Source: a virus. From it: a stretch of 64,000 nucleotides of DNA. A program made the translations under genes and the position numbers. Position 1 is the stretch's first letter; the number at the start of each line of letters is the position of its first letter. The notes under the pieces were generated by a model. That model worked only from the letters and a program-made list of their open reading frames with translations, ran no database searches and was not told the origin of the DNA. Where the stretch lies: the IMG/VR virus record IMGVR_UViG_3300046319_000183. One strand, written 5' to 3'. Shown here piece after piece: positions 4,278 through 49,919 of this stretch.

Positions 4278-5243
4278 ATGTTTACTATTATTTTATTATT
4301 CTTACTTGTTTTGTTTGTAGCTCTACGTTGGATTCTTTTTAAAAAAGGAATTATTTCTTATGAAGTAAAAGATGATAAACCTTATTCTTCAAAAGTTTTA
4401 AGTGTTAATTCGAAGTATCTCTTTGGCATTATTGTTGTAGCTCTTGTAATTACTTTCCAACCTTTTACTATTGAACGAATAGATTCTGGTGCAGTGGGGC
4501 TTAAAGAAAATCTTACTGGCACTTCTAGAGGTATTCAAGGTGTAGAGTTTGCTTCTGGTTATCAGATTTATAATTCTTACACTCAGAATATTCATGAGAT
4601 TGAAACTGATGCAAAAAATGTTGATTATGGTGAAAGTGCTCTTACTGTAAAAGGTGGATATCCTTGTCCTATACATCTTACATTTAATGTTAAAGTAAAA
4701 CCTAAAAATGCCAATAGATTTTTTGTAGAAGTTAGACAAATGTTTAAACAAGGAGGGTTACCTCATGTTTTAGATACTTGGGCAAAAACATCTATAATGG
4801 GTTCTGCTAATCATGTTGCAAACAGATATGAGCCTGATTACATTTTTAATAACCAGCAAAAGTTTGAAGCTGAGATTTATTCAGAAGTTAATAAAAATCT
4901 TGGAGAATTTTTAGAAGTAACTCAAATGAAGACAAATATTAGACCTTCAGAGGACTTAGCTAAAATTATCTCAGATAAAATAAAGACTATTCAAGAGACT
5001 CAGAATGCAGAACTTAATGAGGTAAAAGCTTTAGCAGTTAACAAAACTAAAGTAGCTAATGCTCAAGGTGATTATGATGCAGCTATACTTACAGCCAAAA
5101 AGAATGATATTTTATCACAACCAAAAATGCTAGAACTGTATAGAGCAGAAACTGAGAGAAAATGGGCAGAAGCTAAAACTTCTCCTTGGGGTACTAATAA
5201 TGTTTTTGGTTCTATGCCTGGAATGTTGCTTCAAAGAAAATAA
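4278..5243 (+). CDS. membrane-anchored protein, possibly SPFH/band-7 (prohibitin/HflK-like)
   Basis: N-terminal TM helix. Central region and C-terminal coiled coil resemble SPFH-domain proteins. Similarity is weak and motif-level only. Confidence 0.4.
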   Translation: MFTIILLFLLVLFVALRWILFKKGIISYEVKDDKPYSSKVLSVNSKYLFGIIVVALVITFQPFTIERIDSGAVGLKENLTGTSRGIQGVEFASGYQIYNSYTQNIHEIETDAKNVDYGESALTVKGGYPCPIHLTFNVKVKPKNANRFFVEVRQMFKQGGLPHVLDTWAKTSIMGSANHVANRYEPDYIFNNQQKFEAEIYSEVNKNLGEFLEVTQMKTNIRPSEDLAKIISDKIKTIQETQNAELNEVKALAVNKTKVANAQGDYDAAILTAKKNDILSQPKMLELYRAETERKWAEAKTSPWGTNNVFGSMPGMLLQRK

Positions 5244-5270
5244 TTTCGTACATTTGTAAAAAATTCTATT

Positions 5271-5504
5271 ATGTGGTTTAACAAAGAGGTAGCACCTAAA
5301 ACAGCTAGACAAAAAGCATCAGAAGCTATATCAGGTTTTGAAAATGCTCAAAAACTTTTACTTGAAGCAAATACTGAACTTGTTGAAGAACAAGCAAAAA
5401 CTACTGCTGAAATTGAAAGATTAGAACTTCAAAAAGTTCAAACTCAAGAGCTTATTGGTAAAAATGCTAGAATAGCTGATAAAATTGGCGAAATCATAGC
5501 ATAA
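5271..5504 (+). CDS. hypothetical coiled-coil protein
   Basis: ORF track. Charged, helical composition. Confidence 0.35.
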   Translation: MWFNKEVAPKTARQKASEAISGFENAQKLLLEANTELVEEQAKTTAEIERLELQKVQTQELIGKNARIADKIGEIIA

Positions 5505-5509
5505 TAAAC

Positions 5510-5582
5510 TTTATGACTACCATACTTCTAAAAACCACAGCCTCACAGGCTGTTACAATAACCATTGGTAGTCAATTTTTTT
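5510..5582 (+). repeat. tRNA leader element copy 1: TTTATGACTACCATACTTCTAAAAA, then hairpin ACAGCCTcacAGGCTGT, then TTGGTAGTCAATTTTTTT
   Basis: Inverted repeat GACTACCA/TGGTAGTC brackets the element. It lies immediately 5' of the tRNA at 5583. Confidence 0.7.
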
Positions 5583-5653
5583 GCAGAAAGTGGTGTAATG
5601 GCAACACGTAAAAGGGAATTTTTAAACTTTAGGTTCGAATCCTAGGTTCTGCA
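5583..5653 (+). tRNA. tRNA-like gene (about 71 nt), atypical anticodon arm; isotype not assigned
   Basis: Acceptor GCAGAAA/GTTCTGC (6 bp plus one mismatch). D-arm GTGT-AATGGCA-ACAC. T-arm TTAGG-TTCGAAT-CCTAG. Confidence 0.45.
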
Positions 5654-5656
5654 CTA

Positions 5657-5715
5657 TTATGATTAAGTTACTTCTATTTTTGATTAAAAATTATTTACTT
5701 AATCAATTTTATCTT
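5657..5715 (+). repeat. tRNA leader element copy 2: TTATGATTAAGTTACTTCTATTTTT ... TTACTTAATCAATTTTATCTT
   Basis: Inverted repeat ATTAAGT/ACTTAAT. The sequence differs from copy 1 but pairing is maintained (covariation). Confidence 0.65.
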
Positions 5716-5800
5716 GGAGATATAGCTCAATTGGTAGAGCATTTTATAGTCTATTTAGTTTGCTGTAAAAAGGTTAGTGGTTCGAGTCCATTTATCTCTA
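5716..5800 (+). tRNA. tRNA (85 nt) with about 12 extra nt in the anticodon loop; isotype not assigned
   Basis: Acceptor GGAGATA/TATCTCT. D-arm GCTC-AATTGGTA-GAGC. Anticodon stem TTTTA/TAAAA enclosing a 19-nt loop. T-arm AGTGG-TTCGAGT-CCATT. Confidence 0.55.
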
Positions 5801-5894
5801 CTTTATATTATACTTATAATGTGACCTCTATAAGTTCCTAATTAAAAAACAAATTATATTATAAATAGCTGGTATATGTTATTTCTTAATTTGT

Positions 5895-5963
5895 CTTATA
5901 ACTAATCTACTTCTAAAAAACAAAGGTTGTAGTAAAAATGATTAGTTAATTTGTTTATTCATC
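5895..5963 (+). repeat. tRNA leader element copy 3: CTTATAACTAATCTACTTCTAAAAAAC ... ATGATTAGTTAATTTGTTTATTCATC
   Basis: Inverted repeat ACTAATC/GATTAGT (covarying arms). Confidence 0.65.
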
Positions 5964-6071
5964 GGGATGTGGTGTAATGGTAACACAGTTTATTTTCTCA
6001 GTTAATTCTAATAACTGTGATACTTCTAGCATCAGGAGCAGCTGTTCCAGGTTCGATTCCTGGCATCCCCA
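5963..6071 (+). tRNA. tRNA (about 108 nt) carrying a roughly 37-nt insertion in the anticodon region; isotype not assigned
   Basis: Acceptor GGGATG/CATCCC. D-arm GTGT-AATGGTA-ACAC. T-arm CCAGG-TTCGATT-CCTGG. Insert contains hairpin CAGTTA-attctaa-TAACTG followed by TGATACTTCTAG. Confidence 0.6.
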
Positions 6072-6128
6072 CTATAAAATATGCTTAATTTATTTGTAAG
6101 TTAGGCATATTTCTTTTATCTTTGTACT

Positions 6129-6572
6129 ATGAAAGACAAAGTAAAAAGAACAAATTGGAAACAATACAAAAACACTTTTAAAAGAGATGGTAAAAAATAC
6201 TTATGTATTAATTGTAATGCAGAAGCTCCTTCTCAAAGAAAGTATTGTAATGTTTGTGTAAATAAAGAAAATCCTAAAAGAAGTATTGCACATTTAAAAA
6301 CATTAGAAGAAAATTCTTCTAGCTCTTCTTCCCCACAAAACAAGTATGGGAAAATAAGAATGCAAGCAAGAGCTATTGCATCTGAATATTATGTTAAAGA
6401 ATGCTACAATTGTGGCTATGACAAACATGTGGAATGTTGTCATATTAAAGGAATAGGAACCTTTTCTAAAGAAACTTTAATAGGAGAAATTAACAATATC
6501 AAGAACTTAGTCTTTTTATGTCCCAATTGTCATTGGGAATTTGATAAAGGATTATTAGTCATAACTTCTTGA
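6129..6572 (+). CDS. HNH endonuclease (free-standing, inside the tRNA cluster)
   Basis: CYNCGYDKHVECCHIKG...NLVFLCPNCH, an HNH motif. Confidence 0.7.
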   Translation: MKDKVKRTNWKQYKNTFKRDGKKYLCINCNAEAPSQRKYCNVCVNKENPKRSIAHLKTLEENSSSSSSPQNKYGKIRMQARAIASEYYVKECYNCGYDKHVECCHIKGIGTFSKETLIGEINNIKNLVFLCPNCHWEFDKGLLVITS

Positions 6573-6583
6573 TAATGAACACT

Positions 6584-6648
6584 TTATAATGACTATCTTA
6601 CTTCTAAAAATTCTATTTGAAAAAACCTTTAAACAGTCAATTTTTTAT
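6584..6648 (+). repeat. tRNA leader element copy 4: TTTATAATGACTATCTTACTTCTAAAAA ... AAACAGTCAATTTTTTAT
   Basis: Same boxes as copies 1-3. The arms GACT..../....AGTC pair partially. Confidence 0.6.
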
Positions 6649-6757
6649 AGTGGGGTCGTATAGTGGCTAATACGCTTATTGCTTGATTAATTTTTATAAT
6701 TTAGCTACTTCTACTCCTGTCACGAGAGAGACCTAGGTTCGAATCCTAGCCCCACTG
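6649..6757 (+). tRNA. tRNA (about 109 nt) with a roughly 37-nt insertion in the anticodon region; isotype not assigned
   Basis: Acceptor AGTGGGG/CCCCACT (7 bp). D-arm GTAT-AGTGGCTA-ATAC. T-arm CTAGG-TTCGAAT-CCTAG. Insert contains TTAATTTTTATAATT..CTACTTCTA. Confidence 0.6.
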
Positions 6758-6795
6758 CTTTTTTTATTTTTAATTATTAAATTTATTTCAAAATC

Positions 6796-7098
6796 ATGGC
6801 AAGAATGAGAGTGCTTACAGATGAACAATTAGCTGAACTTTTAGCTACAAAAAACAAACAAGAAAGAATTAAACTTGCAATAAAGTTTAATATAGGTTCT
6901 CAATCTATTTTTAACTTATATCAATATTATAAGCATAAGCCAAAAAAAGTTGAAGAGCTTATGAAGCAGCCAGACTTTAGTCCACTACAAATGATAATGA
7001 TGCCAAATTTAGAACCAAATGAAATAAAAGTCAATGGTACTAAAATGGAATTTCCAAGTAATAGAGCTGTTATTCAAGGAATAGAATTTTCTTGGTAA
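6796..7098 (+). CDS. hypothetical protein
   Basis: ORF track. Confidence 0.4.
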   Translation: MARMRVLTDEQLAELLATKNKQERIKLAIKFNIGSQSIFNLYQYYKHKPKKVEELMKQPDFSPLQMIMMPNLEPNEIKVNGTKMEFPSNRAVIQGIEFSW

Positions 7099-7099
7099 T

Positions 7100-7600
7100 A
7101 TGTATCAACCTACTGACCATAAAATACAAATTAGAGAATTTGTAAAAAATTTTCTAAAAAGTTGTAAAAATGTTTTAACACTACCTAATCTTTATTTTGA
7201 CTTAGAAGAATTTTTAGCAAAAACTGCAAAAGTAGTTTGTTTCGAACAAAATAGAGTAGTGTTTAAACAGCAACAATTAGTAGCTCCTCTTAACGTAGAA
7301 TTAAATTGTGGGAATGTATTAAATGCAGAATCTTCTTTGTATGATGGTATGTTCTTAGATTTCTGTGGCCCTTTTCCTTTTAAACTTTTAAATTTTTTAA
7401 GAAATGTTAAACCAAACTCTAAATTAGTTTTAACATTTTTAGCTGCACGAGAATCAAGAACAATTCAAAAGTTTATAGATATAAGCAACAGACCTCAGAG
7501 TTATGCTCTGCTTTTCAAACATCTAGGATTTAGAACTATAAGCTATGTAGAATATCAATCGGGGTCTCCGATGATTGTTTTTTTTATTATTAAATTGTAA
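7100..7600 (+). CDS. hypothetical protein
   Basis: ORF track. Starts 2 nt after the upstream stop. Confidence 0.45.
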   Translation: MYQPTDHKIQIREFVKNFLKSCKNVLTLPNLYFDLEEFLAKTAKVVCFEQNRVVFKQQQLVAPLNVELNCGNVLNAESSLYDGMFLDFCGPFPFKLLNFLRNVKPNSKLVLTFLAARESRTIQKFIDISNRPQSYALLFKHLGFRTISYVEYQSGSPMIVFFIIKL

Positions 7601-7604
7601 AATT

Positions 7605-7955
7605 ATGTCTATCAAAACACCAGAAAACCTAAAAGGCACAGAAGCCTTTAAATTGTTAGTAAATAACAAAACCCCTCAAGAAAGGGCTTCAGAGTATGTT
7701 TCATCTGTGAAGAGAAAACTTGTTGAAACAGTAATCTCTCCTTTGCAAGACAAAGTAGAAAGTCTTCGTGACAAAATTGCAGACAAAAAAGAGTTTACTT
7801 TAAAAACTGACCATAATCTAGGCTTAAAGCTCATGACTAGAGAAGATGCCACAGCTCGGTTCAAAGAGATTATAGACTTAGAATATGACCTTAAGCTTGC
7901 CGAGCTTGAGTTAGAATGTAAAGTAAAGTCATTTGAAACTTACTTTGGAGCATGA
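7605..7955 (+). CDS. hypothetical coiled-coil protein (start moved to ATG at 7605, just after the upstream stop)
   Basis: The track ORF 7575-7955 overlaps the upstream gene. An in-frame ATG at 7605 follows the TAA at 7598-7600. Confidence 0.45.
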   Translation: MSIKTPENLKGTEAFKLLVNNKTPQERASEYVSSVKRKLVETVISPLQDKVESLRDKIADKKEFTLKTDHNLGLKLMTREDATARFKEIIDLEYDLKLAELELECKVKSFETYFGA

Positions 7956-8500
7956 AATGTTACATTTCTTGTCCGATGTCAATTCCACAATGGCAGCTTG
8001 ATTTAGTTCAAAAACGTCTACAAGATGCTGGTAATGCAGCTGTATTTTGGGAAAGAGGTACAACATATGGTGATAAAGAGAAAAATTGGATTAACACTTG
8101 TGATGCTTTTGTTATAGTGTTGCCTGAATTTGCTTGGCAATATGTAAGAACCAGTCTTCCAAAAGGGTGTAAAACAGAACTAGAACAAGCAGTTTTTCAA
8201 AACAAATCTATTTATATTGCATATAGGACTCAAACAAATAACTCTCTTGCTGTGTATAAAGCAGATCTTTCTGTGAATGCACATATCAGAGGAGTTCCTC
8301 AAACTTATGACTCTTTAGGTCAAAGTAGTTTAAAAGCTATGTCTTTTGAAAAACCAGTAGGAAAGCCTTCCCAATTAATGCAGCTTTCAGAAGTTGTTAA
8401 AATGCATGACACTCTTGAAGATTCAAAAATAGTAGAGTATTGTTGTACATTCGAATTCGAATTTCATTCATATGATAGAAGGCTTCTTCTATTAATGTAA
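7952..8500 (+). CDS. hypothetical protein, weak nucleoside 2-deoxyribosyltransferase-like (NDT-fold) resemblance
   Basis: ATGA overlap. The segment CDAFVIVLPEF...TELEQAVFQNKSIYIAY recalls the NDT/Rcl fold. The call is weak. Confidence 0.3.
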   Translation: MKCYISCPMSIPQWQLDLVQKRLQDAGNAAVFWERGTTYGDKEKNWINTCDAFVIVLPEFAWQYVRTSLPKGCKTELEQAVFQNKSIYIAYRTQTNNSLAVYKADLSVNAHIRGVPQTYDSLGQSSLKAMSFEKPVGKPSQLMQLSEVVKMHDTLEDSKIVEYCCTFEFEFHSYDRRLLLLM

Positions 8501-8504
8501 TAAT

Positions 8505-8566
8505 CTTTATGACTGTCTTACTCCTAATTTTAGTGGATAAAAAACTTAGACAGTCAATTTCTTTAT
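8505..8566 (+). repeat. tRNA leader element copy 5: CTTTATGACTGTCTTACTCCTAATTTT ... TAGACAGTCAATTTCTTTAT
   Basis: Inverted repeat GACTGTCT/AGACAGTC, 8 bp and perfect. Confidence 0.65.
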
Positions 8567-8567
8567 G

Positions 8568-8677
8568 GGAGGTGTAGCTTAATGGTAGAGCGGGAATTAC
8601 TTGGTCAATTTTTATGACTAAGTTACTTCTATCAATTGTTAAATGACCAGATGTGGGTTCGAATCCCATCATCTCCC
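8568..8677 (+). tRNA. tRNA (about 110 nt) with a roughly 39-nt insertion that is itself a contiguous copy of the leader element
   Basis: Acceptor GGAGGTG/CATCTCC. D-arm GCTT-AATGGTA-GAGC. T-arm GTGGG-TTCGAAT-CCCAT. Insert reads TGGTCA-ATTTTTATGACTAAGTTACTTCTATCAATTGTTAAA-TGACCA, bracketed by a 6-bp inverted repeat. Confidence 0.6.
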
Positions 8678-8678
8678 C

Positions 8679-36804: not shown

Positions 36805-37187
36805 GACCAATACAAACACAATGGGTGGAAAACTTAAAAGCATACCCAGAAAGACAAATGAAAGACTTTCTTGGACAAGGTTCACCTGAAGAATACAAAG
36901 CATGCTGTCTTGGAGAATTACTTTTATGTAAATATAGAGCTCAAAAGAAAAAACTACCTTTTATAGGAGGAGAATTATATTCGGGAAAAAGTGAAGATGC
37001 TGTAGCTTGTTTAGACAATTATAAATCTTTAGGATTACTTTCTAATACTGGAGAAATTAGAGCAGATGTTGCAGACACTTATCCAGAAGGGACTTTAGCT
37101 GAACTAAATGATTTAACTTCTACTTGGCCTGAAATAGCAGCTTTTGTAGAAGCTAATCCAGACCATTTCTTCACAAAATCAGTATGA
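36795..37187 (+). CDS. hypothetical protein
   Basis: ORF track. Confidence 0.4.
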   Translation: MQLGPIQTQWVENLKAYPERQMKDFLGQGSPEEYKACCLGELLLCKYRAQKKKLPFIGGELYSGKSEDAVACLDNYKSLGLLSNTGEIRADVADTYPEGTLAELNDLTSTWPEIAAFVEANPDHFFTKSV

Positions 37188-38374
37188 AACAGTATTTAGA
37201 ATTATTAGAAAAAATTCAAAAAAAAGGAACTTATAAACCTGCTGCTAGAACCAATATGCCTGGAACTTTAAGTCTATTTGGAGAACAACTAAGATTTGAT
37301 TTACAAGAAGGGTTTCCTATGGTGACAACTAAAAAAGTTTCTTTCAAAAACATAGTCGTAGAACTTTTGTGGTTTCTCAAAGGAGATACAAACATCAAGT
37401 ACTTAGTAGATAATAGTTGTAACATCTGGAATGAAGATGCATACAATTATTATAAGAAAATATTTAAAGGACATGAAGGAGTACTTCCTTCTTTAGAAGA
37501 GTTTATTCAAGAAGTTAAAACAGGTACAAGAGAATCAAATCTTCCTAACTATACTTATGGAGATTGCGGTAAGCAATATGGCTGGCTTTGGAGAAGGTGG
37601 GAAAACCCTTTTATTGAGTATGGAAATTATGTTGCAAATAATGCAATAGACCAACTCAAAGACTTAATTGAAGGATTAAAGACTAATCCTATGTCTCGTA
37701 GGCACGTTATAACAGCTTGGAACCCAGCTACTCTTGATGATATGGCTTTGAATGCTTGTCATGCTTTTGTACAGTTTAATTGTAGACCTGTTTATGGTAA
37801 GTCAGACTTTACAGAACATAATGGTAAAAAATATTACAATCTTAATGAACGTAATTATCAAAGATTAGAAAGTTTTAAAGAATTTTACCCAGAACTATAC
37901 AACAAAATTGGTAGGCAATCTGGTATAACTCCTTATGAAGAGATGTTAAAAGATAAAAAAACAATGGATGATTTGAATATTTCTTCGTATTATCTTGATT
38001 GTCAGCTTTATCAGCGTTCAGCAGATGTAGTCTTGGGTGTACCTTACAATATTGCTTCATACGCTTTGCTTACAGAAATACTTGCAAAAATTTGTAATAT
38101 GATTCCTGGAGAATTTGTTCATACTTTTGGTGATGTACATATCTACGAGAACCATCTTGAAGCAGTCAAAGAACAATTAGAAAGAGAACCTAAATTTTTA
38201 CCTACTTTAAAAATAAGTGAGGAATGGTTAGATTTTGATACTATTAATTTACTAAAATCTTCAGAACATTTAACAGCATTATTTCATTCTACGTTATTAA
38301 GTGATTTTTCTTTAGAAAACTATAATCCTCATCCCAAATTAAAAACAGAAACTAAACTATCAACAGGATTATGA
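37184..38374 (+). CDS. thyA: thymidylate synthase (ThyA family) with large insertions (396 aa)
   Basis: MKQYLELLEKI...GFPMVTTKKVSFKNIVVELLWFLKGDTNIKYL. Active-site ACHAFVQF. LYQRSADVVLGVPYNIASYALLTE. About 80-aa and about 25-aa insertions relative to 264-aa ThyA. Confidence 0.85.
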   Translation: MKQYLELLEKIQKKGTYKPAARTNMPGTLSLFGEQLRFDLQEGFPMVTTKKVSFKNIVVELLWFLKGDTNIKYLVDNSCNIWNEDAYNYYKKIFKGHEGVLPSLEEFIQEVKTGTRESNLPNYTYGDCGKQYGWLWRRWENPFIEYGNYVANNAIDQLKDLIEGLKTNPMSRRHVITAWNPATLDDMALNACHAFVQFNCRPVYGKSDFTEHNGKKYYNLNERNYQRLESFKEFYPELYNKIGRQSGITPYEEMLKDKKTMDDLNISSYYLDCQLYQRSADVVLGVPYNIASYALLTEILAKICNMIPGEFVHTFGDVHIYENHLEAVKEQLEREPKFLPTLKISEEWLDFDTINLLKSSEHLTALFHSTLLSDFSLENYNPHPKLKTETKLSTGL

Positions 38375-39708: not shown

Positions 39709-40134
39709 ATGTGGACATACCAAGGAAAAGAATACAAAGAAGTACATGACTCCTCTTTACAGGGTTTCATTTACAAAATTACCTACACAGACCCAAAAAC
39801 AAAAGAAGAGTTTCAGTATATAGGCAAGAAGCAATTTTTTGCTAAAAGAACTGTAAAAAAAGGAAAGAAAGCCCTTGCAGCAATGACTGATAAAAGAGGT
39901 TCAAAAAAAGTTACAACAGTAAAAGAATCTGATTGGAAAACCTACCAGTCTTCTAATCAATTCTTAAAGAAAATAGACCCTAAATTTCTGAAAAAAGAAA
40001 TTATAAGTTTTTGCCAAGATGCTATGCAATGTACTTATCTTGAAGTCAAGTATCAAATGACTCATGAAGTTTTGGAAAGCTCTAAATGGCTAAACGGCAA
40101 TATTTTAGGTAAACTATTTAATCAATACAAATGA
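39709..40134 (+). CDS. GIY-YIG nuclease domain protein
   Basis: GFIYKITYT...EFQYIGKK, the GIY...YIG motif. Confidence 0.5.
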   Translation: MWTYQGKEYKEVHDSSLQGFIYKITYTDPKTKEEFQYIGKKQFFAKRTVKKGKKALAAMTDKRGSKKVTTVKESDWKTYQSSNQFLKKIDPKFLKKEIISFCQDAMQCTYLEVKYQMTHEVLESSKWLNGNILGKLFNQYK

Positions 40135-40910: not shown

Positions 40911-41433
40911 ACAAGGAGACTTATTTCAAAGAGCTCTCAAAGGAGAGTTTGATGTAATAGGTCATGGAACTAACTGTTTCTGTACCGCACCATATGGAGG
41001 TATAGCAGCATTATTTGAAAAACATTTTGTTATTTCAGATATGGAAGGAGAAAATCCTATGTACAGAGGAAAGTACAATAAAATGGCTTCAGTAGGAATG
41101 AAAAAGGTCTACATACATGAAGTTACCAAACAGCTTATTCAGCAAAAAGACTTCGAAGCTTCGCTTATACCTCAAATGTACAAACACTTGGTAGTAGCTA
41201 ACTGTTATACTCAATTTAATGCTGGTCCAGATTTAGATACTATAGCTTTGCTTATGTGTCTAAAGAAATTAGCCTACTATTGCAAAGCAAACAATTCGAA
41301 GTTAGCAATTCCTTTAATTGGTTGTGGTATAGCTGGAGGAGACCCAAAAGTTATTGTACCATACATGCAGAAGCTTCTCGCAGAAGTAGATGCAACACTT
41401 ATTGTTTTACCAGAAGATTTTAAAAGGATATGA
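40897..41433 (+). CDS. macro domain (ADP-ribose binding/hydrolase) protein
   Basis: DVIGHGTNCFCTAPYGGIAALF and IPLIGCGIAGGDP resemble macro-domain Gly-rich motifs. Start placed at ATG 40897. Confidence 0.5.
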   Translation: MLKIEQGDLFQRALKGEFDVIGHGTNCFCTAPYGGIAALFEKHFVISDMEGENPMYRGKYNKMASVGMKKVYIHEVTKQLIQQKDFEASLIPQMYKHLVVANCYTQFNAGPDLDTIALLMCLKKLAYYCKANNSKLAIPLIGCGIAGGDPKVIVPYMQKLLAEVDATLIVLPEDFKRI

Positions 41434-42053
41434 AAATTAAATATCCTAAAACATTCCACGTCCCTTCTTCTTTAGGTTGCACTTCAGATGATAAAAAGTT
41501 AGAAAGTATAGACTCATTAGAACAAGGTCTATACTTGATAACAGAAAAGATGGATGGAGAAAACACTACTATGATGAAGGATTGTATTTATGCAAGGTCT
41601 TTGGATAGTAATAATCATCCTTCTAGAAACTATGTTAAAGGTATTTGGGGCAATATCTCTTATCGAATCCCTAAGAATTGGAGAATTTGTGGAGAAAATC
41701 TGTATGCTAAACATTCTATTTACTACAAAAATCTAGTTGGGTACTTTTATGTGTATTCCATATGGAATGAAGAGAATGTGTGTTTGTCTTATGTAGATAC
41801 TAATATGTGGTGTAACGAACTTAATCTACATCATGTTCCAGTACTAGGCATGATTCAGAAAGAAGAACTTGTTACATATGAATTTAAACTAGATTTAAAT
41901 GAACATGAAGGGTATGTGGTTAGAAACACAAAAGCTTTTCATTTTAATGACTTTCAGAAAAATGTAGCAAAGTGGGTTAGACCACAGCATGTACAAACTG
42001 ATGCACATTGGATGCAGTCAGAAATTGTACCAAATCAATTAATATATGGATGA
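41430..42053 (+). CDS. RNA-ligase-like nucleotidyltransferase (Rnl2-type KxDG motif), minimal 207 aa
   Basis: Motif I ITEKMDGEN. Motif III-like ICGENLY. Motif IV EGYVVR. Motif V KWVR. Confidence 0.5.
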   Translation: MKIKYPKTFHVPSSLGCTSDDKKLESIDSLEQGLYLITEKMDGENTTMMKDCIYARSLDSNNHPSRNYVKGIWGNISYRIPKNWRICGENLYAKHSIYYKNLVGYFYVYSIWNEENVCLSYVDTNMWCNELNLHHVPVLGMIQKEELVTYEFKLDLNEHEGYVVRNTKAFHFNDFQKNVAKWVRPQHVQTDAHWMQSEIVPNQLIYG

Positions 42054-42311: not shown

Positions 42312-42685
42312 TATTGGATGCATTATTTTTAACAAAAGAACAGCTTCAAGAAAGAAAAGCTGTTGAAGCTGAAAAGAAGCTTCGAAAAGAAGAAGAAAGA
42401 CTTAAAAAGGAAGAAAAAAATATAGAAGTGTTTTTTGAAAAAGTAAAAGTATATAAAAACATAACTTTACTCAATTCAAATTTTGAACCTTTTTATGTTT
42501 GGGGTATTAAAAAATCTGAAAAAAAAGTTTTGTGTATTTTCCCAGATGATTTACCAGGCTATTGTACAAAAGTAGACTATGATATAAGCTGGTTAGAAAG
42601 CTGTAAAAAAAGATATTTAAAGCTTACAGAAGATATTAAAATTTTAGAACAAAAGAAAAAAGAAGATGAGCAGGAAAAATCTTAA
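42284..42685 (+). CDS. hypothetical Lys/Glu-rich protein
   Basis: ORF track. Confidence 0.4.
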   Translation: MVSLFSNHMILDALFLTKEQLQERKAVEAEKKLRKEEERLKKEEKNIEVFFEKVKVYKNITLLNSNFEPFYVWGIKKSEKKVLCIFPDDLPGYCTKVDYDISWLESCKKRYLKLTEDIKILEQKKKEDEQEKS

Positions 42686-42770
42686 AGTCTTAATACTCAT
42701 TGGATTACCTGGTTCAGGTATAGTTTTTTAAAATAAATAATAGGTTTTCCTGGGTCTGGAATTAATTTTT
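42676..42770 (+). repeat. two degenerate duplicated copies of the 5' (P-loop-encoding) segment of the downstream polynucleotide kinase gene
   Basis: AATCTTAAAGTCTTAATACTCATTGGATTACCTGGTTCAGGTATAG (encodes LILIGLPGSG) and GGTTTTCCTGGGTCTGGAAT (GFPGSG). Compare 43521-43575, AATCTTAAAGTATTGATTCTAGTTGGGTTGCCATAACTAGGTTCTGGTAAAAGT. Confidence 0.6.
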
Positions 42771-42799
42771 ATGTATATTTGTGAAAACAAATTATATAA

Positions 42800-43528
42800 A
42801 TGAGCAAAACAGATTTAGGTAGAAATTGTCCTAAGTGTAATAAACTAATTACATATAAACATTATGCTTCTTATTTTCAAGCAAATAGAATAAATTCTTT
42901 ATGCAAACAATGCATGGTAAATAAAGGAAAATTTAAATTAGGTCAAGAATGTCCAAATAAAACAAGCTTTATCACTTGCTGGGTTAACAAATTTGGTCAA
43001 GAAGAAGCTTCTTCTAAATTATTATCTTATAAAGAAAAACAATCTATAGCTAATACAGGAACTAAAAATAACATGTATGGAAAACCTGCTCCTCAAGGTT
43101 CTGGAAATGGGTGGTCTGGTTGGTATAATTCTTGGTTTTTTAGAAGCTTAAATGAATTAGCTTTTATGGTTAGAGTTATAGAGAGATTTAACTTTTCTTG
43201 GGTCTCCGCAGAAAAGAAAGAATTAAGAATACCTTATATTGACTATAAAAATAGCCAACGCACTTATACAGCGGATTTTTTGCTAAATAACAAATATTTA
43301 GTAGAATGTAAACCAAAAAAATTATTTAATTCTCCTCAAAATTTAGAAAAAAAGAAAGCAGCACTTTTGTATTGTAAAGAAAAAAACTTTATATATAAAC
43401 AAATAGAAACTGAAAAACTAACTTATGAGGAAATTAATAATTTAATTGAGTTAAAGAAATTAAAATTTACAGATAAATATAATGAAAAATTTAAACAATT
43501 CAACAGCAACCCAACGAAAGAATCTTAA
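42800..43528 (+). CDS. zinc-ribbon plus PD-(D/E)xK-like nuclease (putative free-standing homing endonuclease)
   Basis: CPKCNK...CKQC. ...YTADFLLNNKYLVECKPKK (D...E.K). Confidence 0.4.
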   Translation: MSKTDLGRNCPKCNKLITYKHYASYFQANRINSLCKQCMVNKGKFKLGQECPNKTSFITCWVNKFGQEEASSKLLSYKEKQSIANTGTKNNMYGKPAPQGSGNGWSGWYNSWFFRSLNELAFMVRVIERFNFSWVSAEKKELRIPYIDYKNSQRTYTADFLLNNKYLVECKPKKLFNSPQNLEKKKAALLYCKEKNFIYKQIETEKLTYEEINNLIELKKLKFTDKYNEKFKQFNSNPTKES

Positions 43529-44417
43529 AGTATTGATTCTAGTTGGGTTGCCATAACTAGGTTCTGGTAAAAGTACATTTGCTAAAGAACATTTAGCAAA
43601 AAATCCAAATTGGACTAGAGTTAACAGAGATGATTTTAGAGGAATGCTTCAGAATCAACAAATCTGTGAACCAAAAATAGAAGCTATGATTAATGAGTTG
43701 CAAGACTTCACAATCATACAAGCTTTAAAAGCAAAGCAGAATGTCATAATAGACAACACAAATCTTAAGACTAAGTGCATAGAGCATTTCTGCCAACTTG
43801 TAGAGGATAAAGCTGAGGTAGATTTTTTATTATTCAATACTTCTATAAAAAAATGTATTGAAAGAGATAAAGAAAGAACTAATCCTGTAGGAGCTGTCGT
43901 AATTGAGCGTATGCACAAAGATTTAGAAATACTTCTAGATGCTCATGATTTTTCTCATAGACCTGTTAAGCCTAAAATCTATACAAATCCTACACCAAAC
44001 CTTCAGTTGCCCAATTGTTATGTATTCGACATAGATGGTACTCTTGCTCATATGAATGGACACAGGGGCCCATTTGATTGGTCTAAAGTAGATAGAGATG
44101 ATTATGATTTGGCTGTAGTAGCAACTTTAAGGAAATTATCTCAAACAGATAAAATAATTCTACTTTCTGGTAGAGATGAAGAAGCTAGAGAAAAGACCTT
44201 AGAATGGCTAGAATTTTACATGATACCATTTGATGCTTTGTATATGAGACCTAAAGGAGACTTTAGAAAAGATACAATAATCAAAAAGGAATTGTACAAT
44301 CAGCATTTGAAAGATAAGTTTAATGTTATAGCCGTTTTTGATGACCGCACCTCAGTAGTTCAAATGTGGAGAAAACTTGGTCTTAAATGTTTTGAAGTAG
44401 AACATCATGATTTTTAA
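43482..44417 (+). pseudogene. T4-type polynucleotide 5'-kinase/3'-phosphatase (Pnkp/PseT homolog) interrupted by an in-frame TAA inside the P-loop
   Basis: Frame reads MKNLNNSTATQRKNLKVLILVGLP*LGSGKSTFAKEHLAKNPNWTRVNRDDFR...VFDIDGTLAHMNGHRGPFD...VFDDRTSVVQMWRKLGLKCFEV. It is collinear with T4 Pnk (GCPGSGKST, NRDDYR, DVDGTL, DDRTQVVEMWRRIG). Stop TAA at 43554-43556. The phosphatase half (track ORF 43644-44417) is intact. Confidence 0.7.
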
Positions 44418-46222: not shown

Positions 46223-46476
46223 AAGAAGGAGATATTATTCTAGGTTATTTTAGTGGTATTTTTAAAGTAACAAAAGTAACTGCTAGACCAAACATTGCAC
46301 CATTAATTAGTATGGTAAAAGTCTTTAATTCTAAATTTGAGCCAGTACATAGTAAGAAAGAATATTCGTGTGATGCAGGTTATTGTGTACACATAGAAGA
46401 ATATTTAGAAAATGAGCTACTAGCTCTAGAAAAAAGAAAAAAAAAGCTTTTAGATTTTAAAAGAGAAAATTTATGA
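46219..46476 (+). CDS. hypothetical protein
   Basis: ATGA overlap. Confidence 0.4.
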   Translation: MKEGDIILGYFSGIFKVTKVTARPNIAPLISMVKVFNSKFEPVHSKKEYSCDAGYCVHIEEYLENELLALEKRKKKLLDFKRENL

Positions 46477-47774
46477 ACTTAAAGATTAGCGAGAATTCGC
46501 AGAATTATGCAGCCACTGTGATTGAAATTAAAGAGATTTTCAATATAGAAGGAGCTGATAAAATAAAAAGAACTGTTGTAGAAGGTAACAGTATAGTAGT
46601 AGGGCTTGATGTACAAGTTGGTCAACATATGATTTGGTTTTGTGCTGGAACTCAATTGGCTCCAGAATTCTGTAGAGAAAATGATTTGTATGACCAACCT
46701 CTAGAAAATGATGATGTTACAAAAAGAGGATATATTTCTTTTAAAAAAAGGCTTGTAAAAGCTATCAAACTAAGAGGTATAGAATCTAATGGAATGTTGT
46801 TACCTTTGAGTTGCTTAAAGTATCTACATGAAACTCCAGAATCCTTCTTAAAGCTAGGAGATGCTTTTACTGAGTTGGACGAAAATACGATTTGTCAAAA
46901 ATATGTAGTTCCTGTAAGACTTCAAAACTCTGTAAGTTCTGGACAAAAGAAACAAGTAAATAAAGTTCAAGAGCATTTAGTAGATGGGCAGTTTAAATTC
47001 CATGAAGAAACCTCTCATTTTGCAAAAAATATGCATAAATTTGATTGGAATACACCTATCGTAATCACTAGAAAAATGCATGGTTCATCAGGTATTGTCT
47101 CTCATTGTTTGATTAAAAAAGATTTGACTTGGAAAGACAAAGTAGCTAAATTTTTCAAAGTAAAAGTTGAAGAAAAAGAATATGGCTTTGTATGGTCTTC
47201 TGGTAAACCTAAATCAAAAATACCAAAAGGTTTAATCTCTGATTCTAAAAATTGGAAGACTTCAAATCAATCCTACTACACCAATGACATTTGGTTAAAG
47301 GCTTACGAATTGCTTAAAGATAAAACTGAAAAAGGAATAAGCTTGTACTTTGAGATTGTAGGACAAGGAATCCAAGGCCCTTCATATACATATAACCAAG
47401 AGTATGGTATTTACATATACAGAATAACTTCTACCAATCCTGATGGAAACACTTTGGAGTTTTCTTGGAATGACATAAAGGTTTACTGTGAGAAATATGG
47501 ATTGCAGACTGTTCAAGAGTTCTATCAAGGATTATTCTCTACTTGGGGTAAAGCTCAAAAGCTAGTACCTTCTAAGTTTGGTAGCTTTGATAAAGTCCTT
47601 GAGAAACTTGGAGAAGTTTACCTAAACAAATCATTTCCAGACTGTGAAGTTGATGAAGGTATTTGCGTAAGGAACGAACTAACCAAAGAAACTTTTAAAC
47701 TTAAAAGTCCTAAATTCTTAGTTAAAGAATCTGCTGATTTAGAACTTGGTGTAGAAAATATTGAAGAACAATGA
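46473..47774 (+). CDS. putative RNA ligase family nucleotidyltransferase (Rnl2-like KxHG motif) with N-terminal extension
   Basis: Motif I ITRKMHGSSG (compare T4 Rnl2 KIHGTN). Motif III/IV-like LYFEIVGQG. Confidence 0.4.
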   Translation: MNLKISENSQNYAATVIEIKEIFNIEGADKIKRTVVEGNSIVVGLDVQVGQHMIWFCAGTQLAPEFCRENDLYDQPLENDDVTKRGYISFKKRLVKAIKLRGIESNGMLLPLSCLKYLHETPESFLKLGDAFTELDENTICQKYVVPVRLQNSVSSGQKKQVNKVQEHLVDGQFKFHEETSHFAKNMHKFDWNTPIVITRKMHGSSGIVSHCLIKKDLTWKDKVAKFFKVKVEEKEYGFVWSSGKPKSKIPKGLISDSKNWKTSNQSYYTNDIWLKAYELLKDKTEKGISLYFEIVGQGIQGPSYTYNQEYGIYIYRITSTNPDGNTLEFSWNDIKVYCEKYGLQTVQEFYQGLFSTWGKAQKLVPSKFGSFDKVLEKLGEVYLNKSFPDCEVDEGICVRNELTKETFKLKSPKFLVKESADLELGVENIEEQ

Positions 47775-47956: not shown

Positions 47957-48351
47957 TTTGGTTTAAAAAGAAAAGAATTGAACTGGGTAAAGGACATATT
48001 ATCCAGTTCACTTTATTTGAAAACAAGTATTTTGGAGGAATTTGGTTGTATAATTGGAAAACAATAGAGCAGAACAGATTTCATACTCATGCTTTTAAAT
48101 CTGTATGTTTTTTACTTCGAGGCTCATATGAAGAAGAAGTTATGGTGGAGGATAAAATAGAAAAGAGAACTGTAAATCAGTGGCTTAAACCTAGATTTCT
48201 ACCTTACAACTACTGTCATAGAGTCCTAAAAGCTGCACCAAATACCTGGACAATTGTCTTTTTTGGTAAATGGTTACCAACTTGGAAAGAATATTTTGAA
48301 GATACAAAAACTTGGGTAGAATATACTTGGGGAAGAAAAAGAATACAATGA
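47953..48351 (+). CDS. hypothetical protein
   Basis: ATGA overlap. Confidence 0.4.
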   Translation: MIWFKKKRIELGKGHIIQFTLFENKYFGGIWLYNWKTIEQNRFHTHAFKSVCFLLRGSYEEEVMVEDKIEKRTVNQWLKPRFLPYNYCHRVLKAAPNTWTIVFFGKWLPTWKEYFEDTKTWVEYTWGRKRIQ

Positions 48352-48788
48352 AAGATAAAATACAAGAAGAGTTTATCAAAGCTTTTAAAGCTAAGGATGA
48401 ACCAACAAAAAGAGCTTTAAGTTCCTTTAAAGCAAAAATACAAGAGGCAGAGAAAGCACAAAAGAATCAGCCTCTAGACGATTTACAAACTCTACAATTA
48501 CTTTCTAAGGCAATCATACAAAGACAATTATCTTTAATGACTTACAGAGACAATGGTAGAAATGATTTAGCTCAGGTAGAAGCAGAAGAAATTGAAGTTT
48601 TAAAAAGGTTTATGCCTACTGGTATGACTCAAAGTGAAATTAAAGAAGAGTTAATCAGAATTATGGATTTCCTTCCTACTAATCTACCTGATGTTGCTAA
48701 AGTAGGAAAAGCTATTGGAATGTTTAATAAACAGTTTCCAGGCCAAGCTACTACAGATGAACTTAAGCAATATATTTCAGAATTGTAA
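48348..48788 (+). CDS. GatB/YqeY-domain protein
   Basis: MKDKIQEEFIKAFKAKDEPTKRALSSFKAKIQEAEKA... matches the YqeY-like pattern. Start at ATG 48348 (ATGA overlap). Confidence 0.5.
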   Translation: MKDKIQEEFIKAFKAKDEPTKRALSSFKAKIQEAEKAQKNQPLDDLQTLQLLSKAIIQRQLSLMTYRDNGRNDLAQVEAEEIEVLKRFMPTGMTQSEIKEELIRIMDFLPTNLPDVAKVGKAIGMFNKQFPGQATTDELKQYISEL

Positions 48789-49060
48789 TGGATGAGATAA
48801 TAGAAATAATACTACAAAGAAACAAGCCTACAGGAAACTGGGGCATACTTCTAAATGGTGTAAGAATTACTTGTAGAAGTGGTAAAGCAACTTGGAAAAC
48901 TAAAGGACATGCTCAAAGTGCTTTTACAAATCATTTAAGTTGTATGAATTTAGAATTAGATTATTACTTAAAAGACTATGGAAGTATCAGAAGAATTCCT
49001 AAAAAAATAACACAAGAATTAATAAATTCAGGAAATTTAACTTTTAAAGAATATGTCTAA
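48788..49060 (+). CDS. hypothetical protein
   Basis: ORF track. Confidence 0.4.
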   Translation: MDEIIEIILQRNKPTGNWGILLNGVRITCRSGKATWKTKGHAQSAFTNHLSCMNLELDYYLKDYGSIRRIPKKITQELINSGNLTFKEYV

Positions 49061-49919
49061 GAACTGTACAATAATGAAAAGAATGAAAGACAATTACGAG
49101 TCTAGAGCTCGTAGTTATCTTACTAGAAGAGTTCCTGTTATAATGAGATTAGATGGAAAAGCTTTCCATACCTACACTAAAAAGCTTAAAAAGCCTTTTG
49201 ATGAAGGTTTGATTGAAGATATGGCTCAAACAGCTAAGTATCTTTGTGAAAATATACAAGGAGCTAAGTGTGCATACGTGCAATCAGATGAGATTTCTAT
49301 TTTGATTACAGACTACGATACTCTTGATACTCAAGCTTGGTTTGATTATGAAGTACAAAAAATGTGTTCTATTTCAGCTAGTATTGCTACTGCTAAGTTT
49401 AATCAACTAAGATTAGAAAGATTAATGACAAACAGTGGAAAGTGGGATGATAATATTCTTTGCGAATATGGTGCTTTATTAGACTTTAGAAAAGATATGA
49501 GCACAAAATTTAGTCTTGCATCTTTTGATTCTAGAGTCTTTAACATTCCTAAAGAAGAAGTAGCAAACTACTTTCTTGCTAGACAAAAAGATGCTGTAAA
49601 AAATTCAATATCTATGCTTGCTCAATCTTTGTATTCTCAAAAAGAATTACACAAGAAAAATCAATCTGATATGCAAGAATTGTGTTGGCAAAAAGGGCAC
49701 AATTGGAATGATTTACATTGGTCTAAAAAAAGAGGTAGTTTTGTGGTAAAGAATACTTATATTAATAAAGAACTTTTAAATGAAAGATTTCAAAAATTAT
49801 CAGACAAAGTATATTTGAAAGGTTTAGAAGAAATAGTTAATCCTGTTGTAAGAAACAAATGGGAAATTGTAGAAACTCCTTTAAAATTTGAAGAATCAAC
49901 ATTTAAACTATTTATATAA
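49053..49919 (+). CDS. Thg1-like protein (tRNA-His guanylyltransferase family 3'-5' nucleotidyltransferase)
   Basis: RRVPVIMRLDGKAFHTYTKKLKKPFDEGLIEDMAQTAKYLCENIQGAKCAYVQSDEISIL matches the Thg1 core (vvRiDGrxFhxft...kPxD...aYgqSDEiS). Confidence 0.7.
   Translation: MSKNCTIMKRMKDNYESRARSYLTRRVPVIMRLDGKAFHTYTKKLKKPFDEGLIEDMAQTAKYLCENIQGAKCAYVQSDEISILITDYDTLDTQAWFDYEVQKMCSISASIATAKFNQLRLERLMTNSGKWDDNILCEYGALLDFRKDMSTKFSLASFDSRVFNIPKEEVANYFLARQKDAVKNSISMLAQSLYSQKELHKKNQSDMQELCWQKGHNWNDLHWSKKRGSFVVKNTYINKELLNERFQKLSDKVYLKGLEEIVNPVVRNKWEIVETPLKFEESTFKLFI

Follow-up and report, generated by a model that had tools for sequence, protein, structure and literature searches.

The viral genome IMGVR_UViG_3300046319_000183 encodes a polynucleotide kinase/phosphatase (Pnk) whose gene carries an in-frame TAA stop codon within the codons of the Walker-A motif (P-loop) of its kinase domain. 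In the stretch that we analysed, 64,000 nucleotides (nt) that are called the window below, this TAA is likely to be part of a programmed translational bypass signal (a "stop-hop"), delivered by a mobile homing-endonuclease cassette. It is hardly less likely that such cassettes form the first natural family of short stop-hops, i.e. a widespread phage cassette in kinase Walker-A codons at which a peptidyl-tRNA-Pro would skip 5-9 nt, with a refolding hairpin as the main driver.

Six surplus bases interrupt the Walker-A codons of pnk

The open reading frame (ORF) at 43482-44417 on the plus strand translates as MKNLNNSTATQRKNLKVLILVGLP, a stop and LGSGKSTFAKEH..., and is then open to the TAA at 44415-44417. 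By its sequence it is a T4-type polynucleotide kinase/phosphatase, as claimed in an earlier note made from the letters of the window. Pfam models match both its N-terminal P-loop kinase domain (PF13671, AAA_33, 1.3e-18) and its C-terminal HAD phosphatase domain (PF25109, HAD_PNKP, 1.3e-46), which are ordered as in T4 Pnk, and residues 16-311 align with the PDB entries for Capnocytophaga Pnkp1 (4xrp, 2e-53) and T4 Pnk (1ltq, 1.2e-35). Each of these alignments places a two-residue gap precisely at the stop and the Leu that follows it. At the DNA level, the Walker-A codons read GGG TTG CCA TAA CTA GGT TCT GGT AAA, which is six bases too many, and the surplus bases are TAACTA at 43554-43559, in line with that note's account of the interruption. 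An uninterrupted Walker A (GxxxxGK[ST]) is absent as written (GLP-TAA-L-GSGKST) and present only if 43554-43559 are skipped. Deleting exactly these bases gives a canonical motif and a 309-amino acid (aa) Pnk, collinear with T4 Pnk and Pnkp1. It was also correctly noted that conventional translation gives only a phosphatase-domain protein: the first in-frame ATG, GTG or TTG downstream of the TAA is the ATG at 43644, and gene callers annotate only a 257-aa "hypothetical protein." In this genome, TAA serves as a normal stop: it terminates both pnk and the ORF upstream, the standard code yields densely packed ORFs that end in TAA, and no sense use of TAA was found.

The interruption is absent from close endonuclease-free relatives

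A 242-aa ORF upstream of the interruption, discussed below as a putative endonuclease, and the truncated 257-aa Pnk were found as exact sequences on 17 contigs, which come from several JGI and Logan samples. Over 1.1 kb spanning the site, the seven retrieved loci (L003-L009) are 99.9-100% identical; they represent the same phage population and thus confirm the assembly only, without counting as independent observations of evolution. The same GGG TTG CCA TAA CTA GGT, with different flanking substitutions, is present in L010 (SRR14877778), which is a diverged phage that comes from another study. Comparison with orthologues in related phages, proposed in the earlier note as a check, shows that L010 shares the CCA TAA CTA, and that endonuclease-free relatives (L001, L002, L012, and L013) have an uninterrupted LIGLPGSGKST and no 242-aa ORF at the same place. 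The endonuclease is thus present in the window and L003-L009, missing from L001, L002, L012, and L013, and reduced to a remnant in L010. The nearest endonuclease-free Pnk proteins are P0001 (95% identical) and P0124, both in P0001's 90%-identity cluster. A DNA similarity search of 50,697 deposited phages gave no match to the locus or to a 22-kb stretch, and exact-insert pattern scans of viral contigs and JGI metagenome contigs gave no match.

Between the two insert-bearing lineages, the window and L010, five of the six base changes in 43482-43643 are synonymous (read off the alignment), and the ratio of nonsynonymous to synonymous substitution rates (dN/dS) in the kinase domain is 0.10. The L010 kinase domain is nearer to that of endonuclease-free L001 than to that of the window, and the divergence may therefore predate the arrival of the cassette. 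As a side observation, a deletion in L010 (region 4398-4870) brings the first 47 codons of the RNA ligase gene together with the last (3') third of the endonuclease gene. It removes the native stub described below, whereas the new start, hairpin and gap are kept. The C terminus of the L010 Pnk has also been replaced (..RKDVCRMWHKIGLTLFRVGDPDEDF).

The six bases end a cassette that duplicates the 5' end of pnk

Sequence comparison identifies the six bases as the 3' end of a mobile cassette of ~850 nt sitting inside the Walker-A codons of pnk. The earlier note missed this homing-endonuclease context, together with the native stub at 42666-42731. The 5' end of pnk is found on both sides of the endonuclease ORF, the first ~46 nt of L001 pnk (10010-10055) aligning with the window at 42675-42720 and again from 43518 onward. 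The residues of the upstream stub before the break match the N terminus of endonuclease-free L001/P0001. The downstream, replacement copy differs from the native 5' copy (L001 and the stub) in ~11 of 16 shared codons, nearly all synonymously (read off the alignment), and bears an 11-residue N-terminal extension.

The spacer between stub and endonuclease gene contains a second P-loop-like sequence (Table 1), probably either the remnant of an earlier host gene or a conserved cassette leader. A related piece, RGIxGFG(F/I)N..IF, lies just 5' of the endonuclease start in the window (42743-42799), in L014 (2940-3000) and in L020, L027, L031, and L038; either an old P-loop remnant has been carried along there, or the endonuclease gene has a conserved leader/promoter.

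The cassette encodes a putative homing endonuclease associated with P-loop genes

The ORF at 42800-43528 is predicted to encode a free-standing homing endonuclease of the PD-(D/E)xK type, whose target would be P-loop coding sequence. It matches PF08722 (TnsA-like_N, 8.1e-07) above the cut-off and PF05367 (phage endonuclease I) below it, and among solved structures it is matched weakly by T7 endonuclease I. Most of its 438 homologues carry NUMOD3 (PF07460), and D159, E169, and K171, expected to underlie its nuclease activity, are invariant across 26 homologues. Endonuclease loci in viral contigs were obtained by a search with a profile alignment (A1), which gave 80 loci; a single-protein scan of viral contigs gave no match. 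The homologues adjoin genes with an N-terminal Walker A, such as an intact pnk in L014 and the gene for an AAA_28 protein in L015-L018. An intact Walker A starts between -10 and +95 nt relative to the endonuclease stop codon in 24 of the 80 viral loci, and about 25 carry a gapped Walker A instead.

According to alignment A1, the endonuclease of the window is without the NUMOD3-repeat segment of most homologues, like P0128, P0129, and P0141, and keeps a zinc-ribbon-like CxxC..CxxC N terminus and the D..ExK core. The window contains a second free-standing homing endonuclease gene, SegE-like and of the GIY-YIG type (8.5e-21), at 39709-40134, with the first RNA ligase gene 1.3 kb downstream of it. 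In L010, an additional GIY-YIG ORF lies beside the corresponding copy.

A common rule links hairpin, Pro codon, stop and gap in 42 phage sequences

Forty-two distinct phage sequences, gathered from the endonuclease loci and by a pattern scan of viral contigs, follow the same rule: hairpin-GGG-NNN-CCN-stop-2 to 6 nt-GGN NNN GGN AAR. They comprise 40 tabulated variants and two variants with longer gaps (8 and 9 nt), and are found in genes for Pnk, for kinases of 138-167 aa and for longer kinase proteins (~195-333 aa). In every variant, GxPG[SAC]GK[ST] and a complete ORF reappear once the gap is removed, whether the downstream ORF lies in frame 0, +1 or -1 with respect to the upstream ORF. Most gaps are 6 nt long (33 variants, with TAA CTA, TAG CTA, TAA CCA, TAA ACA, TGA CCG, TAA CTT, and others). 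Gaps of 5 nt (CCG TGA CA, six variants), 7 nt (TAA ATCA), 8 nt (TAA TACCA) and 9 nt (TGA AGACCG) also occur. The codon before the gap, our proposed take-off codon, is CCN in all 40 tabulated and both longer-gap variants. The A-site codon is a stop in all 42 (TAA in 22, TGA in 12 and TAG in 6 of the 40), and it is followed by C in 37 of the 40. The last three bases of the gap, the proposed landing codon, always encode Pro or are one step from a Pro codon (CTA 13, CCA 9, ACA 7, CCG 3, CTT 3, CCT 2, TCA 2, and CTG 1 in the 40 variants); they are a perfect Pro codon in about 15 variants, including those with 8- and 9-nt gaps, and have one mismatch in the rest. Upstream of the stop, a hydrophobic β1 strand and an RG[VLI]P pattern are kept across variants.

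The association of these features is strict. The 80 endonuclease loci contain 55 distinct GxGK[ST]-coding sites. The CCN-stop-gap arrangement is present at every one of the 19 that have an upstream hairpin at least as strong as -18 kcal/mol, and at none of the other 36. A pattern scan of 596 Gb of bacterial and archaeal genomes returned 77 matches, none of which combines the hairpin, β-strand and ORF features. This yielded no instance outside phage contigs and, with no genuine case among the 77 matches, indicates that the features do not arise by chance.

The cassettes occur in three arrangements. In the first, the endonuclease gene is on the same strand as the kinase gene and a stub lies upstream (the window, L019, L020, L031, L033, L038, L049, and L059); all stubs break inside the P-loop, after ..PG or ..GSG. 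In the second, the endonuclease gene is divergent, 120-145 nt upstream, without a stub. In the third, it is a remnant or absent (L010, L130, L140, L193; L100, L107, L113, L120, L134, L142, L151, L170, L180, and L181), and L193 is the one such locus that keeps a stub. The signal is retained with neither intact endonuclease nor stub in L010, L100, L107, L113, L120, L134, L142, L151, L170, L180, and L181. Because there is no upstream exon in the second arrangement and, bar L193, in the third, the kinase could be made there only by decoding through the gap.

A covarying hairpin abuts the proposed take-off codon

Every variant has a hairpin immediately upstream, whose G-rich 3' arm ends no more than 2 nt from the first base of the take-off codon, and on that very base in half of the variants (20/40). 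The mean minimum free energy (MFE) is -23.7 kcal/mol (55 nt, 40 variants), ranging from -18.1 to -30.8, and z-scores against shuffled sequences are -4 to -8.2 for the first 11 variants (63-nt segments). The hairpin of the window has an MFE of -22.9 kcal/mol (z = -7.4, 63 nt); over 94 nt it reaches -25.4 kcal/mol, which none of 200 shuffles equalled. In contrast, control sites fold poorly: the mean is -5.5 kcal/mol for 24 intact P-loops linked to the endonuclease, the values for L001, L012, L014, and the stub of the window itself lie between -2 and -5.6 kcal/mol, and those for eight other native stubs between -0.9 and -13.2 kcal/mol.

Between families, compensatory changes affect both sides of the stem (pair -3 is AU, UA, CG, or GC; pair -1 is CG, GC, or UA). 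Covariation was read from pair tables of individual folds, anchored on the take-off codon, because a MAFFT alignment of the hairpins (A2) mis-aligned the 5' arms. The Gly codon located two codons 5' of the take-off codon is GGG in 39 of 40 cassettes, whereas native stubs and intact genes use GGA, GGC, or GGT. Covariation of the 5' arm speaks for selection on the hairpin.

On the 3' side of the take-off codon, the window shows a weak, window-specific CUAGUU/AACUAG pairing and a small ACUAG/CUGGU hairpin. The former corresponds to an inverted repeat (CTAGTT, 43539-43544; AACTAG, 43555-43560), by which the sequence 5' of the Gly codon pairs with the stop and the landing codon. In L010 it carries an A-to-G change that keeps a G.U pair, and it competes with the main stem. 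We considered it as a scar of templated mutation or as a take-off stem-loop and dropped both ideas; the other cassettes are without this repeat, which is therefore treated as specific to the window.

A model for expression of the interrupted kinase

The coordinates of the elements discussed here are collected in Table 1.

Table 1. Elements of the interrupted pnk locus, by position in the window
Element	Position	Strand	Remarks
Native pnk 5'-end stub	42666-42731	+	ATG..MSRKNLKVLILIGLPGSG, then IVF-stop; 21 codons, cut inside Walker-A codons
Spacer	42720-42799	+	Holds second P-loop-like relic
P-loop-like relic GGTTTTCCTGGGTCTGGA (GFPGSG)	42743-42760	+	In 5' untranslated part of cassette
Putative homing-endonuclease gene	42800-43528	+	242 aa; 3' end overlaps new pnk start
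Replacement pnk 5' segment MKNLNNSTATQRKNLKVLILVGLP	43482-43553	+	24 codons; own ATG inside endonuclease ORF
Outer stem, 5' arm GCAACCCAAC	43506-43515	+	Individual folding
Inner stem, 5' arm AGAAUC	43519-43524	+	Individual folding
Inner stem, 3' arm GAUUCU	43535-43540	+	Individual folding
Outer stem, 3' arm GUUGGGUUGC	43542-43551	+	Final base is first base of take-off codon
Proposed take-off codon CCA	43551-43553	+	Pro (P of GLPGSGKST); CCN in all variants
Coding gap, 6 nt	43554-43559	+	UAA stop 43554-43556 (then C); proposed landing codon CUA 43557-43559
Rest of pnk	43560-44417	+	Would resume at GGT (GSGKST...); stop TAA 44415-44417
Kinase motif VNRDDFR (NRDD, catalytic Asp)	43620-43640	+	Present
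HAD phosphatase motif DIDGT (DxDGT)	44028-44042	+	Present

We propose the following scenario. The cassette would have inserted into the Walker-A codons of pnk, leaving a dead 21-codon stub upstream and bringing in the endonuclease gene and, for the 5' end, a recoded replacement that has a start codon of its own. Ribosomes would start at 43482 and read 24 codons before pausing with peptidyl-tRNA-Pro on CCA and a stop in weak context, UAA-C, in the A site. The hairpin, its 3' arm located in the E site/exit channel, would re-zip behind the ribosome and draw the mRNA forward, and the tRNA-Pro would re-pair with CUA six bases downstream (C:G, U.G, A:U). In cassettes with AGA GGG GUA CCG UGA C, the G-run could also act through pairing with rRNA. 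With decoding resuming at GGU, the hop, at whatever efficiency, would restore exactly GLPGSGKST and produce a full-length kinase-phosphatase. An exact hop predicts the junction peptide VLILVGLPGSGK, whereas decoding of the stop predicts ..GLPXLGSGK, with two extra residues. For the cassette, the 6-nt gap probably breaks the endonuclease's own target site, by analogy with the 50-nt gap of gene 60 and MobA.

Several points weigh against this scenario. Bypassing is deduced from comparative sequence alone, and many of the 42 variants share ancestry, so that their counts are not independent events. The landing codon of the window, CUA, matches tRNA-Pro only through a central G.U pair (CCA-to-CUA re-pairing gives two Watson-Crick pairs and this one), and for the 5-nt variants the landing codon is ACA, with two positions out of three matching. 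We found no gene-60-like stem-loop 3' of the take-off codon, either in the window or conserved across cassettes. At take-off the 3' arm of the hairpin would be inside the ribosome, so its pulling role is something that we infer from mechanism. Finally, the low dN/dS of the kinase domain is confounded by cassette mobility and is given no weight.

Alternative explanations

The main alternative is that the kinase is dead, the cassette having destroyed the P-loop and left the phage with no product or, at best, a protein with the phosphatase only, started at the AUG at 43644. We regard this as unlikely, even though conventional decoding stops at 43554, the next start is at 43644 and callers give a 257-aa product, the dN/dS evidence being confounded. 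Pnk may also be dispensable in many hosts (T4 pseT). However, a dead gene fits poorly with 42 diverged variants that keep both ORF halves open, some in another frame over 117-288 codons, and that always keep a stop at the same place although its identity varies. It is equally at odds with a covarying hairpin found only with the insert, and it leaves unexplained the Pro-like landing codons, the β1 strand and RG[VLI]P pattern upstream of the stop, the persistence of the signal after endonuclease loss and the five synonymous changes out of six between the window and L010 (43482-43643). The same evidence disfavours two options of the earlier note, a recent pseudogene and a phosphatase-only enzyme. 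A sequencing or assembly artefact, another of its options, has nothing but the oddity of the site in its favour and is excluded by the insert being identical on 17 contigs (L003-L009) and present in diverged L010, and the rule in 40 other sequences leaves it only a negligible probability.

Homologous elements with gaps of 5, 6, 7, 8, and 9 nt would require three mechanisms if the stop were decoded, i.e. readthrough in cassettes that are in frame and -1 or +1 frameshifting in the others, to give a kinase with GLP-X-L-GSGKST. As gaps of 5, 7, and 8 nt change the frame, readthrough or suppression cannot explain the homologous cassettes. The inserted residues would be unconserved (X-L, X-P, X-T, V-T, K-S...) within the strict GxxxxGK[ST] spacing, all three stops are used across phages, and the Pro-like last gap bases would have no explanation. 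In favour of a decoded stop are the in-frame length of the 6-nt gap, the unusual tRNAs that the phage encodes, and the weak termination context of UAA-C in Escherichia coli (fourth-base effect), but we still find such decoding improbable, more so than a dead kinase. The suppressor tRNA with a UUA anticodon for which the earlier note proposed to look was not found among the tRNA genes in 5000-9500 (ARAGORN with and without intron search, and Rfam). Its suspicion of programmed recoding stands, without readthrough or suppression as the means.

Least probable of the biological readings, and only barely worth entertaining, is that the cassette is an intron, with the stub at 42666-42719 as exon 1 spliced to GSGKST or KST..., so that the TAA would not be in the mature mRNA. 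Phage homing endonucleases are often intron-encoded, and the stub has the native start codon and ends in the P-loop, where in-frame joining to the downstream gene is possible. Yet 42500-43800 has no Rfam match to group I or II introns, at gathering score or E ≤ 10, and the 80 and 32 nt that flank the endonuclease ORF are too little for a ribozyme core. The 3' flank is moreover coding-like and synonymously recoded, and L010, all divergent cassettes and most endonuclease-free ones (not L193) keep the hairpin-stop-gap without a stub. Programmed bypassing thus remains our preferred reading.

Other features of the window

Genes for RNA repair surround pnk: two RNA ligase genes (41430-42053 and 46473-47774), a Thg1-like gene (49053-49919) and a YqeY-like gene (48312-48788). 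Such a module, comprising two RNA ligases and a Thg1-like gene, is expected to require a 5'-kinase. Several tRNA genes (5583-5654, 5716-5801, 5963-6072, 6649-6758, 8568-8678, and 9165-9272) seem to have 12-37-nt inserts in or beside the anticodon loop. Rfam calls the insert-bearing tRNAs at 85-110 nt, one has a 6-nt anticodon loop, and some share a box ..ATAACT/ATAATT..TACTTCTA. These inserts co-occur with the two RNA ligases, Pnk, and the Thg1-like gene, and phage-encoded tRNA processing or splicing is conceivable. The earlier note saw a likeness between the inserted ATAACTA and a tRNA-leader box, which is attributable to chance, ATAACTA occurring 15 times in the window vs 23 ± 4.6 expected. 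Finally, in the 396-aa thymidylate synthase ORF (37184-38374), the Pfam model is matched in two separate stretches, which suggests an internal insertion; L001 has a ThyX (Thy1) gene in the neighbourhood where the window has thymidylate synthase.

Discussion

Natural bypassing has so far rested on few systems, namely gene 60 of T4 with its homologues, the byps of yeast mitochondria and a candidate in a Streptomyces phage. If our reading is true, the cassettes add about 40 natural variants of a minimal signal, consisting of a hairpin, a Pro codon, a stop, a 5-9-nt gap and a Pro-like landing codon. They would allow upstream mRNA refolding to be tested as a driver of forward ribosome movement, show how much take-off/landing pairing is needed, and show how selfish endonucleases enter the most conserved motif of an enzyme without killing it. 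This would be the second known endonuclease-plus-bypass cassette, after T4 mobA/gene 60, and a minimal and naturally varied model of bypassing. Because gene callers truncate or split such genes, RNA-repair kinases in phage metagenomes would be systematically mis-annotated.

The closest parallel is T4 gene 60, for which Bonocora et al. reportedly described, in 2011, a mobA/gene 60 mobile cassette with a 50-nt translational bypass. Like it, the cassettes place a free-standing homing endonuclease in a conserved enzyme gene and provide the part downstream with a new start and N-terminal segment. They also have a stem-loop on the 5' side and a short non-coding insert that opens with an in-frame stop, immediately next to the take-off codon. 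The T4 decay series, in which the signal is retained after the endonuclease decays, is also paralleled. In T4, mobA is mobile together with the gap of gene 60, as one cassette in which the gap guards against self-cleavage, and the gene 60 signal includes a stop next to the take-off codon, codons that match, and a stem-loop on the 5' side for which a role in propelling bypassing has been proposed (10.1101/2022.08.31.505936; 10.1101/2024.12.09.627546). The differences are substantial. The gap is 5-9 nt rather than 50, the take-off codon specifies Pro (CCN) rather than Gly/Asp, the target is the Walker A of polynucleotide kinases rather than a topoisomerase, and the nuclease is PD-(D/E)xK/TnsA-N-like (with or without NUMOD3) rather than MobA. 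The displaced 5' part is a dead stub, whereas in T4 it is functional, as a split subunit. Among conserved RNA elements, a strong 5' hairpin that abuts the take-off codon dominates, whereas the 5' stem-loop of gene 60 is weakly conserved, and, in contrast to gene 60, neither a take-off stem-loop nor a mini-Shine-Dalgarno (SD) sequence is seen in the gap. A survey in 2022 placed gene-60-type cassettes in topoisomerase genes only and considered similar bypassing unreported in other phages (Manning & Atkins, 10.1101/2022.08.31.505936).

In mechanism, the predicted event resembles the engineered, low-efficiency +5/+6 stop-hops of Weiss et al. (1987) in E. coli, as summarized in a review (PMC5009743). 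There too, peptidyl-tRNA leaves its codon at an A-site stop and re-pairs with a synonymous codon just past it, so that nine nucleotides specify one amino acid and the product has no extra residues. Those hops were synthetic, whereas a conserved natural signal with a dedicated hairpin is proposed here; a natural in-frame stop-hop was not known in 2016 (PMC5009743). We found no description of a short natural hop cassette in the literature searched. Elsewhere, upstream refolding hairpins, juxtaposed to the shift site, have been described that stimulate forward slippage and mimic an internal SD duplex (PMC6321510).

Three further systems share some traits. The gene for terminase in Streptomyces phage Hau3 is a candidate for a short bypass over a rare UUA, where mass spectrometry of the junction peptide confirmed bypassing in E. 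coli (PMC10732093). It too is a natural phage gene with a short gap after a slow-to-decode A-site codon, but this is a rare sense codon, the proposed role is regulatory, there is no endonuclease cassette, and the take-off codon and RNA structures are different. The byp elements of Magnusiomyces capitatus mitochondria (27-55 nt; 10.1101/2022.08.31.505936 and PMC5009743) are likewise mobile inserts in essential genes made harmless by bypassing, and are described there as tolerating two of three take-off/landing matches. They differ in being eukaryotic and organellar, in having gaps that are much longer and an A-site codon that is an unused sense codon, and in lacking an endonuclease gene.

The +1 frameshift site of prfB (RF2) reads AGG GGG UAU CUU UGA C. 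With an SD-like G-run ~3 nt before the P-site codon and a stop followed by C, it is similar to the AGA GGG GUA CCG UGA C of many cassettes; one example of such a site is L020 3415-3437 (AGA GGG GTA CCG TGA CA). However, prfB shifts by +1 onto an overlapping codon, whereas the cassettes must skip 5-9 nt. In contrast to prfB, the cassette G-run pairs with an upstream C-run, with covariation, and the GUU GGG UUG of the window is poorly SD-like. Taken together, these comparisons cast the cassettes as a variant of what T4 has taught: bypassing and endonuclease cassettes that carry it are known from that phage, and what would be new is programmed bypassing delivered by a homing-endonuclease cassette in kinase genes.

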